DNA of 19,196 bases, taken from the IMG/VR virus record IMGVR_UViG_2534682325_000029. The stretch is one strand, 5' to 3'. Shown here piece after piece: positions 1 to 7,630 of the stretch; positions within the stretch are counted from its first letter, which is position 1, and each line of letters begins with the position of its first letter. The notes under the pieces were generated by a model, which was not told the origin of the DNA, did no database searches, and worked only from the letters and a program-made list of their open reading frames with translations. A program made the position numbers and the translations under genes. This stretch comes from a virus. Lineage: Duplodnaviria; Heunggongvirae; Uroviricota; Caudoviricetes.

Positions 1-1023
1 TTACTTGGAATATTTTCTTGGAATATTTTCAGGTAACGGGACATCAAGTGTTGGTGAAACTTTAACCTTCCTGTCATAGATTAGCACTTGCCCTTCGGTT
101 TTGTGACCAGAGAAAAGTTGCTTATCCCGGCTGCTTCCTTCATAGTCTGAAATTCCTTTCGCCTTCAGATCATGAAAGGTGAAGTCGGTTAAAATACCTG
201 AAATTTTGCCTGCGTGATTTCTTGCTTCTACCCACATTTCGTTAAAGCCTTTGTACATATATCGGTTGCCGTATTGATTGCTGATTACATAGGCGGATGT
301 TGGTAACTGTTTTGCTTTTTCGATCGCCGCCTGTAATCGTGGACTCCATGCTTTTATCTGTTTTTTCCCTGTTTTCCCTTGCTGGATAAAGATCCCGTCG
401 TTTCCAATCTGCTCCCATTTCAGCGATAACACATCGGAAACCCTCGCTGCACACAGATAGGCAATTTCCATTGCGATAAAAACAGGAAGAGGTGCAACGC
501 TTAATACTGCCTGGTATTCTTTGTCGGTTACATATCGTTCGCGGTTTTTGGCCTTGAATTTACTTACACCTGCACATGGGTTAGCCTTCACGTATCCTCG
601 CTCATACCCCCAACTATAAACGCGCGACATACTGCTTTTTTCATGGTTTGCCTGCGTTTTACTCTGCTCGCCTCTTTTGTCCATGTATCGTCTGATGTGC
701 TCTGGTTTTACAGAATCGGCCAGCACCTTACCGAATACGGCCAGCAGCTTTTTTTGATGTTGCAGATAATCTTTTTGAGTTCTAGGACTAAGCTCGCTGT
801 AATAGGCGCTGGCGAGAAATTTTTCCCACAAACGCCCAAATGTCATTGCGCGATCGCGATGGTTAACCGTTTCTTCATACTTTTTCCATAATGCGGCTAA
901 ACCATCCTCGATTGCAGTTAAGGTTACAGATTCTCTGGATGTCGGTTTCCATACACTATATTTATTGGGGTATACCTTTGGCGGTAATTTTTCGTGTTCG
1001 GGATTTTTCCTTCGTCTTCCCAT
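1..1023 (-). CDS. int: Tyrosine recombinase, lambda-type phage integrase (340 aa)
   Basis: Full-length ORF. N-terminus MGRRRKNPEHEKLPPKVY parallels lambda Int MGRRRSHERRDLPPNLY as recalled from memory. C-terminal region carries HDLKAKG and LIYDRK consistent with the catalytic His and Tyr box. Start overlaps the upstream excisionase stop (TAATG). Confidence 0.88.
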   Translation of the reverse strand: MGRRRKNPEHEKLPPKVYPNKYSVWKPTSRESVTLTAIEDGLAALWKKYEETVNHRDRAMTFGRLWEKFLASAYYSELSPRTQKDYLQHQKKLLAVFGKVLADSVKPEHIRRYMDKRGEQSKTQANHEKSSMSRVYSWGYERGYVKANPCAGVSKFKAKNRERYVTDKEYQAVLSVAPLPVFIAMEIAYLCAARVSDVLSLKWEQIGNDGIFIQQGKTGKKQIKAWSPRLQAAIEKAKQLPTSAYVISNQYGNRYMYKGFNEMWVEARNHAGKISGILTDFTFHDLKAKGISDYEGSSRDKQLFSGHKTEGQVLIYDRKVKVSPTLDVPLPENIPRKYSK

Positions 1024-3851: not shown

Positions 3852-4040
3852 TTATCCAGCCGGTGTTTCGTTATTCAGGTACAGCGATACTTTTTTTACC
3901 GGTAGGCATTCACCAGAAATTTTTTGCTCGTCTCTTGCCTGGAGGCAGGATTCTTTACTGGCATAAATTCCGGTAATAACATTCTGTGATTCACCCGTTA
4001 TAAGAAAAACCGTCATCACCAGTGCAAATGCTGAAGTCAT
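3852..4040 (-). CDS. YdfD-like small protein with N-terminal hydrophobic segment (62 aa)
   Basis: ORF directly downstream of the dicB-like gene with a 4-nt stop/start overlap, mirroring dicB-ydfD order in the Qin prophage. N-terminal MTSAFALVMTVFLITG is hydrophobic. Confidence 0.5.
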   Translation of the reverse strand: MTSAFALVMTVFLITGESQNVITGIYASKESCLQARDEQKISGECLPVKKVSLYLNNETPAG

Positions 4041-4225
4041 TGACGTTCTCCGAAAATACCAAGTTTAATAAGGGCAATTCGGGAAAGAATGGAATTATCA
4101 TTGAGCAGATAAGGCTCATATTTCCGCATATTAATGGCATCCTCAGTAAACGCTTTATTACTGAGCAGAACACCAATATCAAAACAACCTTCAGACGTAT
4201 TAACGTTTGGTAATAACGTTTCCAT
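4037..4225 (-). CDS. dicB: DicB-like cell-division inhibitor (62 aa)
   Basis: N-terminus METLLPNVNTSEGCFDIGV...FTEDAIN closely matches E. coli DicB (METLLPNVNTSEGCFEIGV...FTEDAIN, recalled from memory). Same length as DicB. A DicF-like sRNA lies upstream as in the dicB operon. Confidence 0.75.
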   Translation of the reverse strand: METLLPNVNTSEGCFDIGVLLSNKAFTEDAINMRKYEPYLLNDNSILSRIALIKLGIFGERQ

Positions 4226-5132: not shown

Positions 5133-5780
5133 TTATAAGTTGAACTGTACACCTTTTGCTACGGCAACAATTTTACACTCTGGTGTAAGTAAGGATGACT
5201 GATAGCGTGGATTGAGAGGGCTTAAATACACAAGCTTCCCATCAATAACTAATTTCTTTATAGTCATAGATGGTTCATTTTTAAGCGGATCCGGAACTAT
5301 TACAGCGACGATGCTGCCATTTTTATAACTTTCTCCTGGCCTTAGGATCACAGTAGCACCAACTGGGATACTCGGTGATCCTGATGGGTTATGCATTGTG
5401 TCATCAGGCATTGAAACGGCAAAATCACCTTCCTCGACATCAAAGAATGTGGTGATTCTATCGACATTTCCCATTGTTTTCTCTCCTTTTAAGATTAGGA
5501 AAGAAATCGCCTCACCCCACGAAAGGTAGGGGATCTTGGTGCCTGAGGTACTTTGTACAAAAGATAATTCAGGAGACGATACTCCATATAGGAGATAGGA
5601 CTCAGTAGTTCCTAATGCCTGGGCTAACTTACTTAGAGCTTTGCTACCTGGTTCGTTTAGATCTTTCTCCCAGTACCCTATAGTAACCCCAGTCACGCCT
5701 GAAAGCTTACCCAGTTCTACTTGGGTCAGCCCCTTATCTTTTCTAAGTCTCTTAAGCCTGAAGCCAAGGCTTTCCATCAT
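5133..5780 (-). CDS. CI-type prophage repressor: N-terminal HTH (XRE family) plus C-terminal LexA/S24 peptidase-like domain
   Basis: N-terminal GLTQVELGKLSGVTGVTIGYWEKDLNEPGSKALSKLAQALG is an HTH_XRE signature. C-terminal ~120 aa has the size and layout of an S24 autocleavage domain. Start taken at the ATG ATG pair preceded by AGGAGA; the ORF-track start at 5792 is a TTG. Confidence 0.82.
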   Translation of the reverse strand: MMESLGFRLKRLRKDKGLTQVELGKLSGVTGVTIGYWEKDLNEPGSKALSKLAQALGTTESYLLYGVSSPELSFVQSTSGTKIPYLSWGEAISFLILKGEKTMGNVDRITTFFDVEEGDFAVSMPDDTMHNPSGSPSIPVGATVILRPGESYKNGSIVAVIVPDPLKNEPSMTIKKLVIDGKLVYLSPLNPRYQSSLLTPECKIVAVAKGVQFNL

Positions 5781-5874
5781 TTTCTCCTGCAAATTGAATA
5801 TAAATTATTTTAGATTGCATTGACCTAAAAAAAATTATCTTGTAATCTAAAAATACTTAGATTTGGGAGGTAAA
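5781..5874. promoter_or_regulatory. Putative OR region with divergent PRM/PR promoters and operator palindrome AATCTAA-N6-TTAGATT
   Basis: Intergenic region between divergent cI-like and cro-like genes. Contains TTGACC at 5820-5825, an A/T-rich -10 region, palindrome AATCTAAAAATACTTAGATT (5844-5863) and an extra TAGATT half-site at 5811-5816. Half-sites match those in the OL region. Confidence 0.5.
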
Positions 5875-6102
5875 ATGCGAGTTGATGAACTTGTCCAGTT
5901 TTTTGGTTCTGTTCAGAGGGTTGCCGATTTTTATGGGATAACCCGCGAAGCTATTTACATGTGGCGTAAGCGTCCTGGTGAAATAGTTCCGAAGGGGAGG
6001 GCTGCGGAAGCTGCTGCATACTCCAAGGGGAAATTATCTTTGAACCCAGAACTTTACAAAAAGAAGGATACCACTCAGGGCGAAGGAAAGGGGGATTCAT
6101 GA
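5875..6102 (+). CDS. Cro-like small HTH regulator (75 aa)
   Basis: Divergent from cI across the operator region. Strong SD GGAGG 4 nt upstream of ATG 5875; the ORF-track start at 5863 is a TTG. Size and basic C-terminal tail resemble lambda Cro. Stop overlaps the next gene start (ATGA). Confidence 0.65.
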   Translation: MRVDELVQFFGSVQRVADFYGITREAIYMWRKRPGEIVPKGRAAEAAAYSKGKLSLNPELYKKKDTTQGEGKGDS

Positions 6103-6524
6103 AAATCAAACATGAGCACATCCGCATGGCGATCAATGCCTGGGCCTATCCGGACGGTGAGAAAGTTCCTGCAGCTGAAATAGCCCGGACTTATTTCGAG
6201 CTGGGGATGACGTTCCCGGAACTGTACGACGACAGCCATCCGGAAGCCCTGGCTCGTAATACCCAGAAAATTTTCCGTTGGCTGGATAAAGACACCCCTG
6301 ATGCTGTTGAAAAAATTCAGGCTCTGTTACCGGCGATCGAAAAGGCAATGCCGCCTCTGCTGGTGGCCCGTATGCGCAGTCACAGCTCTGAATATTACCG
6401 TGAGATCGTCGAACGGAGGGATCGGCTGGTGAAAGATGTGGATGATTTTGTCGCAGCGGCGATCGCCTGGGGCACCCTGACTAACAGTGGTGGTCAGCCT
6501 GGTAATGCTGTTGTCGTGCATTGA
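6099..6524 (+). CDS. CII-like / YdaT-like early regulatory protein (141 aa)
   Basis: Positioned where lambdoid phages carry cII, coupled to cro by ATGA overlap, with SD AAGGGGG. N-terminus MKIKHEHI resembles Rac YdaT as recalled from memory; the family assignment needs a search. Confidence 0.5.
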   Translation: MKIKHEHIRMAINAWAYPDGEKVPAAEIARTYFELGMTFPELYDDSHPEALARNTQKIFRWLDKDTPDAVEKIQALLPAIEKAMPPLLVARMRSHSSEYYREIVERRDRLVKDVDDFVAAAIAWGTLTNSGGQPGNAVVVH

Positions 6525-6592: not shown

Positions 6593-7630
6593 ATGGCTAA
6601 TGCCTGGCTCAGATTGTGGCATGACATGCCAAATGATCCCAAATGGCGAACCATTGCCAGGGTCTCAGGACAGCCAATCGCAACAGTGATGGCGGTGTAT
6701 ATCCACCTTCTGGTGAGTGCGTCACGAAATGTCACGACATGTCACGGCGTGTCACTACGTGGTCACATTGATGTCACGACGGAAGATTTAGCAAGTGCGC
6801 TTGATGTGACGGAAGACGTGATTGATTCAATTTTGCATGCAATGCAGGGGCGAGTTCTGGATGGTGATCTTATTTCCGGATGGGAAAAACGCCAGGTGAT
6901 GAAGGAGGATAACGGTAATGTTTCGCAAACCGCAAAATCCCCGGCAGAGCGCAAGAGAGCGCAGCGGGAGCGGGAAAGACTGCGGAAGCAGAACACTGAT
7001 TGTCACGATGAGTCACGACGCGTCACGCATATGTCACGACAAATCACGACAGATACAGATACAGATAAAGAATTAAACCCCACACATAACGCGCGCATGC
7101 GCGAGAGTGCTACGACCGGTGAGTTGAATGACGCGTCGTTGCAGACAGCCGAACCTGAATACCTGGACGGCCTGAGCGAACCGATCGGGAAATTTCCGAT
7201 GACTGGAGTCTGGCAACCGTCGCCGGATTTTCGACAGCGGGCAGCAGTGTGGGGTATGGCTCTGCCTGAGCCTGAGTTTACACCTGCTGAGCTTGCCGCA
7301 TTCCGGGATTACTGGATGGCGGAGGGGAAGGTTTTCACGCAGGTTCAGTGGGAGCAGAAATTTGCCCGTCACGTGCAGCACGTCAGGGCACAGGTAAAAC
7401 CAGTCAGCAAGGGGGTAAGCCATGCAGCACCAGGTGGCACCGCATCACGGGCAGTTCAGGAAATTCGGGCAGCACGTGAACAGTGGGAACGTGAAAACGG
7501 ATTTATCAGCAACGGAAACGGCCTGGAAGCTGTGGGAACTTATGGGGGAGGTGTATTCGAACCGCTGGACCCAGAAGAACGGGGCTGCGCCGTCGAAGCT
7601 CTGGATTGCTCAGATTGGCGCGATGACTGA
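6593..7630 (+). CDS. Replication initiator, O-like, with origin iterons embedded in the coding sequence
   Basis: Position after cII-like gene and before P-like gene. Two clusters of 10-bp GTCACGAC-type direct repeats lie inside the ORF, as lambda ori lies inside gene O. ATG 6593 is preceded by GAGGTGA; the track start at 6587 is a GTG. Confidence 0.7.
   Translation: MANAWLRLWHDMPNDPKWRTIARVSGQPIATVMAVYIHLLVSASRNVTTCHGVSLRGHIDVTTEDLASALDVTEDVIDSILHAMQGRVLDGDLISGWEKRQVMKEDNGNVSQTAKSPAERKRAQRERERLRKQNTDCHDESRRVTHMSRQITTDTDTDKELNPTHNARMRESATTGELNDASLQTAEPEYLDGLSEPIGKFPMTGVWQPSPDFRQRAAVWGMALPEPEFTPAELAAFRDYWMAEGKVFTQVQWEQKFARHVQHVRAQVKPVSKGVSHAAPGGTASRAVQEIRAAREQWERENGFISNGNGLEAVGTYGGGVFEPLDPEERGCAVEALDCSDWRDD
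6719..6780. repeat. Iteron cluster 1: about six 10-bp-periodic GTCAC(G/T)AC-type direct repeats
   Basis: Read directly: gtcacgaaat gtcacgacat gtcacggcgt gtcactacgt ggtcacattg atgtcacgac. Confidence 0.8.
7001..7069. repeat. Iteron cluster 2 (five 10-bp repeats) followed by an (ACAGAT)x3 tandem hexamer and A/T-rich stretch; candidate replication origin core
   Basis: Read directly: tgtcacgatg agtcacgacg cgtcacgcat atgtcacgac aaatcacgac, then agatacagatacagataaagaattaaa. Confidence 0.75.

Follow-up and report, generated by a model that had tools for sequence, protein, structure and literature searches.

The window considered here is the whole stretch of 19,196 nucleotides deposited as IMG/VR record IMGVR_UViG_2534682325_000029, a virus of the class Caudoviricetes. 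It is a lambdoid prophage of Escherichia coli O157:H7, is 100% identical to many O157:H7 chromosomes and adjoins tRNA-Ser and mtfA. In its replication region, which has the order cI-cro-ydaT-initiator-P, the gene of the presumed replication initiator carries two arrays of short direct repeats, the second of which is followed by an A-rich tract containing (ACAGAT)n hexamers. These arrays and the tract very probably constitute the vegetative origin of replication of the prophage, located inside the gene of its own initiator, and the adjoining palindrome is probably part of the same origin. The elements in question are the following:

6593..7630, plus strand: initiator gene, 345 amino acids (aa), encoding a winged-helix domain (aa 1-100), a basic helix (117-136), a disordered linker (142-197) and a DnaT-type domain for binding of single-stranded DNA (ssDNA; 200-270)
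6721..6782, plus strand: array 1, six direct repeats with the core GTCAC(G), spaced by 10, 10, 10, 11 and 11 bp
6806..6810, minus strand: single inverted core, GTGAC on the top strand, 28 bp past the last repeat of array 1 (GTCAC-N28-GTGAC)
7002..7052, plus strand: array 2, five direct repeats (four GTCACG and one ATCACG), spaced by 10, 10, 11 and 10 bp
7040..7089, plus strand: A-rich tract of low G+C content (G+C 0.325, AT skew +0.56), proposed DNA-unwinding element
7049..7071, plus strand: (ACAGAT)3.8 hexamer repeat with a period of 6 (Tandem Repeats Finder), encoding (TD)n and part of the A-rich tract
7090..7103, no strand assigned: G+C-rich palindrome CGCGCGCATGCGCG, holding the perfect 12-mer CGCGCATGCGCG (7092-7103), directly past the A-rich tract

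A first-pass annotation of this DNA had described about six and five tandem 10-bp repeats lying roughly 220 bp apart within coding sequence, and this description proves to be accurate, as six copies are separated from five by a gap of 220 bp. The repeats of array 1 start at 6721, 6731, 6741, 6751, 6762 and 6773 (GTCACGAAAT, GTCACGACAT, GTCACGGCGT, GTCACTACGTG, GTCACATTGAT and GTCACGACGG), those of array 2 at 7002, 7012, 7022, 7033 and 7043 (GTCACGATGA, GTCACGACGC, GTCACGCATAT, GTCACGACAA and ATCACGACAG), the fifth and last of array 2 having the degenerate core ATCAC. In Tandem Repeats Finder, the period-10 arrays extend over 6721-6766 and 7002-7039. In general, the core is 7 bp long and asymmetric and recurs every 10-11 bp in two clusters. 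The exact sequence GTCACGA is found seven times in the window, six of them in the array region. Moreover, the arrangement GTCAC-N5-6-GTCAC is observed nine times in the window against 0.05 expected, a number reached in none of 200 shuffles, and eight of the nine occurrences lie inside the two arrays. The sole pair outside the initiator gene, GTCACAGTGCAGTCAC (GTCAC-N6-GTCAC) at 8620-8635 in a DUF1627 gene further downstream, is probably due to chance. Apart from this pair, neither the window nor the flanks of the homologous loci described below hold a second GTCAC cluster of the kind represented by SPP1 oriR. Specifically, GTCAC-N5-GTCAC is confined to the arrays, with zero further copies in the fetched flanks of any locus. 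Other repeat clusters were likewise not seen in the window or in any locus flank, and boxes for the host DnaA protein are not enriched in or near the arrays, with one weak match only, at 6881, in the interval 6700-7100.

Array 2 had also been said to be followed by a short tandem hexamer and an A/T-rich stretch. Indeed, the hexamers at 7049-7071 lie at the G+C minimum of the gene, 0.325 in 40-bp windows at 7040-7089, directly 3′ of array 2 and with a strong excess of A on the top strand. The same order is found family-wide: in nearly all of about 50 homologues, including those from hosts of 60-67% G+C, the 40-bp window of minimum G+C is placed directly 3′ of array 2, where the tract typically reads CAGATAAAGATAAAGAT..., (CAGATA)n, (GATAAA)n or (GATACA)n. 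In addition, the GAT and AAA codons of the tract are frozen across relatives. Past the tract, short inverted repeats that are unrelated in sequence are modestly enriched throughout the family (mean best stem 5.5 vs 4.4; Wilcoxon p=1e-6, a value overstated by the relatedness of the compared sequences). A search of the region for extra promoters or terminators returned only the palindrome, as a terminator-like match on the minus strand without a convincing T-run.

To follow the arrays in other genomes, the N-terminal domain of the initiator (N-domain) was searched for by tblastn and genome-wide, which yielded isolated phages plus 58 bacterial loci. The phages comprise Escherichia phages Evi and Tritos, Aeromonas phage pAEv1818 and several Pseudomonas phages, and the loci are distributed over gamma-, beta- and alpha-proteobacteria, Acidobacteria and one metagenome-assembled genome of the Gemmataceae. 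At an identity of at least 58%, about 25 loci, all from gamma- and beta-proteobacteria, have GTCAC at the same gene offsets, namely 129/139/149/160 and about 389/399/409(/419). Absence of the repeats from homologous functional genes, which the first-pass annotation had named as an outcome that would refute an origin, is not what is observed: the repeats are kept in Evi, Tritos, pAEv1818 and the Pseudomonas phage phita81A.

The constraint acting on the repeats was measured at the codon level in 22 non-redundant relatives sharing 58-91% aa identity, from genera including Escherichia, Aeromonas, Pseudomonas, Bordetella, Serratia, Stenotrophomonas, Acidovorax, Chromobacterium and Gilvimarinus. The core codons are frozen, with GTC, ACG, GGT and CAC kept in 22/22 and TCA in 21-22/22. 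The fraction of the top codon is 0.93 for core codons vs 0.53 for the other codons of conserved residues in the same genes (Mann-Whitney p=1e-6, where p-values overstate the independence of sequences that are phylogenetically related). Similarly, the inverted core GTGAC occupies the corresponding offset (193; 214 in the window) in most genes of the GTCAC group, with GTG as the Val72 codon in 19/19. The core can also be kept despite a change of residue, as in R45Q, where CGA is replaced by CAA. Furthermore, a period of 10-11 bp is not divisible by 3, so that the core falls into each of the three frames (A-S-R, V-T, G/C-H), and consequently a repeated peptide motif cannot explain the arrays.

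The number of repeats is not constant. With respect to most relatives, array 1 of the window and of E. albertii (L007 2629-2682) contains a 21-bp insertion of two repeats (7 aa, TCHGVSL), and array 2 has undergone an additional 21-bp expansion by an extra repeat pair (7022-7042) in the lineage of the window. As these insertions consist of 10+11 bp, copy number shifts by two-repeat steps that preserve the frame. Other relatives gain repeats on the 5′ side of array 2. The distance from the first repeat of one array to the first of the other varies among relatives between 240 and 281 bp, for which reason no claim is made on helical phasing between the two arrays.

These data bear directly on the possibility that the arrays have no function at the DNA level, being either slippage products tolerated in flexible protein segments or the outcome of a constraint that concerns only the protein or the mRNA. 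Such a reading would be in keeping with the in-frame 21-bp steps and with the position of both arrays in lower-confidence parts of the predicted structure (predicted local distance difference test, pLDDT, of about 68 for aa 41-60 and below 50 from aa 142). However, it is strongly disfavoured by synonymous positions that are frozen in the cores only, and it is at odds with a 10-bp period that sets the core in three reading frames, with a residue that may change as the core stays, with different cores at the same positions in other subfamilies and with an array conservation that spans proteobacterial classes. A constraint on mRNA structure, in turn, would not yield direct repeats at helical-turn spacing. 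This explanation can be regarded as extremely improbable.

The subfamilies just mentioned are distant homologues that lack GTCAC and instead have other cores, placed at the same two positions of the gene and again spaced by 10 bp. In particular, CGAACGC is found in 16 loci, GTAACG(C) in 5 loci and GTGACGC in 1 locus, the pattern xxxACG being common to all core types. Direct repeats that co-vary with their own initiator, of which an iteron-type origin should have three or more, are thus observed, with 6 + 5 copies in the window and with conserved positions and subfamily-specific cores across about 50 loci. The genus Pseudomonas holds both the GTCACG and the CGAACG type, and the occurrence of differing cores within one host genus implies that the reader of the repeats travels with the element and not with the host. 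Taken together, the shared codon positions, the frozen synonymous sites, the alternative cores and the family-wide A-rich tract lend strong comparative support to the earlier proposal of an iteron-type origin within the initiator gene.

The N-domain of the encoded protein is a DnaD-NTD-like winged helix of presumed "replisome organizer" type. The family to which the protein belongs is labelled "replication initiation protein" in PHROGs, and its close relatives are named "phage replisome organizer" at NCBI. Array 1 encodes aa 43-64 (ASRNVTTCHGVSLRGHIDVT), that is, the end of helix 29-45 and then a hairpin leading to helix 63-70, within the folded domain. Array 2 encodes aa 137-154 (CHDESRRVTHMSRQITTD), at the end of the basic helix (117-136) and the start of the disordered linker (142-197), where the (TD)n stretch specified by the hexamers is also located. 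The earlier placement of the repeats in an encoded linker is correct for array 2 and the hexamers, but it does not extend to array 1, which lies in the folded DNA-binding domain. The C-terminal half is predicted to contain the three-helix ssDNA-binding domain of DnaT. The NCBIfam model of the host protein, NF002770, gives 93.1 bits vs a cut-off of 201 and is matched at profile positions 80-156 only; the initiator shares the DnaT domain without being a DnaT orthologue. A search of PDB sequences with the family profile returned DnaT only. The designation of the gene as "O-like" can be retained for its position and presumed role, by analogy, but not in the sense of homology, as a relationship with lambda O was sought and rejected (BLASTP E=3.2, profile comparison probability 0.05%, no match to the Pfam O family).

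The genes around the initiator gene complete the picture of a lambdoid replication region:

5133-5792, minus strand: LexA/cI-type repressor gene
5863-6102: P22-Cro-type gene
6099-6524: YdaT-family gene, followed by the initiator gene
7422..8084, plus strand: lambda-P-like helicase-loader gene (Pfam Phage_lambda_P, E=3.4e-16, 59.9 bits vs a cut-off of 26; PHROG "P-like helicase loader")
3′ of the P-like gene: DUF1627 gene, with weak winged-helix/MarR-like matches

The P-like protein has 24% identity to lambda P (E=3e-6) and, judged by these matches, is a true but distant relative of it, presumably acting as the partner of the C-terminal half of the initiator. The 5′ end of its open reading frame (ORF) overlaps the 3′ end of the initiator gene in another frame (7422-7630). 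The ORF has an ATG at 7422, with an upstream AAGGGGG run resembling a Shine-Dalgarno sequence, and an in-frame ATG at 7542, and the start annotated in RefSeq is 7623. Since aa 55 of the long ORF is already covered by the Pfam P match, which starts there with profile position 28, the overlap would amount to about 90-210 nt. Gilvimarinus (L019), E. albertii (L007) and others show this overlap of the two genes as well. PHROG 15931, with 482 positions, matches both the initiator and the P-like protein, suggesting fused or mis-joined annotations elsewhere.

Across the family, no partner of the arrays is constant except the N-domain. GTCAC arrays are found exclusively together with an N-domain of the window type, and the C-terminal domains vary, some being DnaT and most something else. 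The next gene on the 3′ side varies as well and can encode a P-like protein, an IstB/DnaC-like protein, DnaB, a Toprim-DnaB primase-helicase or an unrelated product. In E. coli, the breakpoints of megablast alignments show that DNA homology to prophage genes of the Rac-SA53 ydaU type and the PPompW type starts at 7051-7067, and the C-terminal half (from about 7051) together with the P-like gene is 87-94% identical at the DNA level to the ydaU/ydaV-type genes of Rac-SA53 and to those of PPompW. The alignments place the mosaic junction to the C-terminal half within the A-rich tract, and the N-domain with its arrays appears to behave as a portable module, joined at the tract to a C-terminal module specific for its partner, a principle already familiar from lambda O.

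A mosaic junction directly past array 2 would also be compatible with a different DNA function served by a different binder, whether a hotspot of recombination and module exchange, a centromere-like partition site comparable to parC of plasmid R1, or a site for the YdaT-like or the DUF1627 protein. Type II centromeres typically consist of two clusters of short direct repeats spaced by a helical turn, as with the 10-11-bp repeats of R1 parC, which is much the layout of the present arrays, and the DUF1627 protein with its weak winged-helix/MarR-like matches could be pictured as a DNA-binding candidate. On the other hand, the module is devoid of partition genes, integrated lambdoid prophages have no known need of a centromere, many loci keep GTCAC arrays without YdaT, P-like or DUF1627 neighbours, and only the gene in which the arrays lie is linked to them without exception. 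A function of this kind is accordingly considered highly unlikely, and the preference remains for an origin read by the initiator.

In support of the origin reading, the layout matches those of proven origins, namely ori-lambda in gene O, SPP1 oriL in gene 38 and the origins of TP901-1 and Tuc2009; binding of the initiator, unwinding, loader recruitment and origin activity are inferred. In lambda and in the phages 933W and P27, which carry Shiga toxin (Stx) genes, the origin is found midway in the initiator gene, flanked by the sequences that encode the N-terminal origin-binding domain and the C-terminal partner-binding domain. As in the window, repeats of the initiator-binding type are followed by a purine-biased A-rich tract, a palindrome and then a P-type loader gene (PMC7466680), and the genomic context is likewise cI, cro, a gene in the cII position, initiator and P. 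The O gene of Stx phages has two extra iterons that add 13 aa to the protein (PMC7466680), as compared with the 7 aa added by the extra repeats here. Ori-lambda differs in having a single cluster of four 18-bp iterons, spaced by about 20-24 bp, whereas in the window cores of 7 bp recur at intervals of 10-11 bp and form two clusters separated by 220 bp; the repeats of the window depart from the iterons of the lambda O family in general, which measure about 18-19 bp, possess internal dyad symmetry and form one cluster of 4-6. Moreover, array 1 of the window belongs to the part of the gene that codes for the DNA-binding domain, the C-terminal domain resembles DnaT and no homology to O is detectable.

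The style of the repeats is closer to the replisome-organizer origins of phages of Gram-positive bacteria. In SPP1, oriL is located inside gene 38, which encodes the replisome organizer G38P (PMC6316719), an initiator that similarly has a DnaD-like/winged-helix N-domain and operates with the G39P loader and the G40P helicase. Gene 38 contains 9-bp-spaced AACAATGA(T/A)AACAA repeats in its middle, at a relative position similar to that of array 2. SPP1 possesses an additional, distant origin (oriR), of which no counterpart was seen in the window, and the window further differs in its Gram-negative hosts, its P-like loader and its DnaT C-domain. For the lactococcal P335-type phages TP901-1 (ORF13) and Tuc2009 (Rep2009), the organizers are described as binding regions of their own genes that are rich in direct repeats and constitute the ori (PMC8965321), an arrangement that resembles the present one and belongs to Gram-positive phages. 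The proposed origin is thus best explained as a functional analogue of ori-lambda and SPP1 oriL.

Other systems share single components. Rac-type YdaU and the DopC-DopE pair resemble the window in that a DnaT_C domain protein is paired with a P-like protein. DopC has a DNA-binding N-terminus and a DnaT_C domain and adjoins the P-derived DopE; no iterons in dopC were reported by the authors of that work (PMC5509034). The N-domains are different, DUF1376 in some E. coli prophages and HTH_36 in DopC. Gilvimarinus belongs to the order of the domesticated dopC/dopE (Cellvibrionales), and its prophage copies of the GTCAC-iteron initiator (L018, L019) may be near the phage source of that domestication; these two loci were considered as domesticated dopC and rejected, as both are lambdoid prophage modules of the ordinary kind, in which YdaT, P and NinB are also present. 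The winged-helix Rep proteins of iteron plasmids such as pPS10, R6K and the staphylococcal multiresistance plasmid (RepA, 4pta) give a structural match to the N-domain that is weak and generic, and their iterons, unlike those of the window, are about 17-22 bp long, recur about every two helical turns and are placed outside the rep gene.

It is also conceivable that the arrays bind the initiator and are mainly regulatory, as a roadblock or autorepressor site for the 3′ half of the gene and the P-like gene, or, in a variant, that they titrate the initiators of related superinfecting phages, as in lactococcal Per or the lambda "inhibition phenotype"; the real origin would then lie elsewhere. Iteron plasmids have operator-type inverted repeats, to which array 1 and its conserved inverted copy (GTCAC-N28-GTGAC) bear a resemblance. 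Up to four copies of the module in many E. coli genomes make cross-titration between prophages plausible, and, as described in PMC8965321, cloned ori regions of TP901-1 and Tuc2009 confer a Per phenotype. A purely regulatory role, however, leaves unexplained the universally adjacent A-rich tract, with its AT-rich codons frozen even in high-GC hosts, and the match to the order of ori-lambda (iterons, AT-rich tract, palindrome). In addition, the window and the locus flanks offer no other repeat cluster to take the part of the origin. Regulation and origin function are in any case compatible, and origin iterons do both in known systems. Both forms of a mainly regulatory function, taken together, are therefore judged unlikely, and the arrays are preferentially read as part of the origin.

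A number of points weigh against the origin reading. Besides the relatedness of the compared sequences mentioned above, frozen synonymous sites demonstrate selection on DNA or RNA and not its purpose. The profiles for the N-terminus of phage replisome organizers match the N-domain over its whole span but below threshold (Pfam PF09681, E=0.013, 16 bits, cut-off 23.3; TIGR01714, 17.8 vs a threshold of 49.8), and homology to SPP1 G38P, looked for by profile comparison with hhalign using a shallow profile, gave nothing. The literature found, with subscription journals largely outside the search, contains no description of the family or its origin and no binding or replication data. In the papers found on the replication regions (Eru) of enterohaemorrhagic E. 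coli (EHEC) and Stx phages, there is no mention of iterons or of the origin of this module, and the literature on Rac oriJ/ydaU gave no account of it either. As regards the role of array 1, three loci (L041, L044, L053) lack it and keep array 2 and the tract, which for this reason look like the core element. From this pattern, array 2 and the A-rich element probably form the origin core, with array 1 being accessory.

A further difficulty concerns specificity. The recognition helix and wing (AMQGRVLDG) are nearly invariant across subfamilies with different cores. Consistent differences between the GTCACG and CGAACGC subfamilies are limited to N46A, T48E and H58R, all encoded by array 1, a conservative I77V and an indel region at aa 108-120. 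Residues 46, 48 and 58 are in the beta-hairpin of the winged-helix domain, and the indel extends to where the basic helix begins. The common ACG could be recognised by the conserved part and the remainder of the core by the few variable positions. Alternatively, the DNA may simply dictate which residues array 1 encodes. The hairpin might itself be the specificity determinant, in which case the iterons would be recognised by means of the peptide encoded by array 1, but this is considered rather unlikely. If true, a single DNA segment would serve as the binding site and at the same time encode the part of the protein that reads it, and a change in the site would automatically change the reader, providing a built-in route to new origin specificities.

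On this basis, the following course of events can be envisaged. Upon derepression, transcription from the cro-side promoter would lead to expression of ydaT, the initiator and the P-like gene, and the N-terminal winged helix would bind the 7-bp cores. Given the recurrence every 10-11 bp, the bound proteins would be aligned on one face of the helix and could assemble a cooperative complex similar to the O-some on array 2, with array 1 and the inverted copy, about 220-280 bp upstream, as an accessory site acting in looping, enhancement or autoregulation. Stress exerted by the complex, together with transcription through the gene, would melt the adjacent purine-biased A-rich tract. The DnaT-type domain might then hold the opened strand and/or dock the P-like loader with the host DnaB, after which the host replisome would take over. 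On an evolutionary scale, recombination at the A-rich tract would join the N-domain/array module to C-terminal domains that suit the helicase or loader gene that follows.

The rest of the prophage offers some side observations. Three tRNA genes are located at 13978-14227, 3′ of the Q antiterminator gene, and are assigned by ARAGORN to Met(CAT), Arg(TCG) and Arg(TCT); the first is annotated in RefSeq as tRNA-Ile, presumably with a lysidine-modified CAT anticodon. The cell-division inhibitor gene dicB and the type I toxin gene hokD are found at 4037-4225 and 11057-11212, respectively, as annotated by RefSeq for the identical region. At the left end (window 1-1023), the annotation of strain ECP19-198 gives the integrase as frameshifted, and the element may be excision-defective.

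Among 5426 complete E. coli genomes, 644 contain the module of N-domain and arrays, in up to 4 copies per genome, and the module also occurs in temperate phages whose hosts include Pseudomonas, Aeromonas, Bordetella and Serratia. O157:H7 strains typically carry it at 2-3 places. Several resident prophages of these strains may share one origin specificity, with possible cross-activation or titration after induction. The principle of an origin inside the initiator gene is textbook knowledge, and it is this widespread family and its repeats that appear to be undescribed. The origin assignment is solid and testable and represents a neat case of co-constraint between a DNA site and the protein it encodes, not a conceptual surprise. 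Knowledge of the origin and of its reader would help to predict which prophages co-replicate or interfere after induction, a matter of relevance to the mobilisation of Stx and effector-carrying prophages in EHEC, and would provide a handle on origin incompatibility or Per-type exclusion between phages, as well as a basis for new conditional replicons. The family as a whole represents a natural experiment in the change of initiator and iteron specificity, with both locked in one reading frame.

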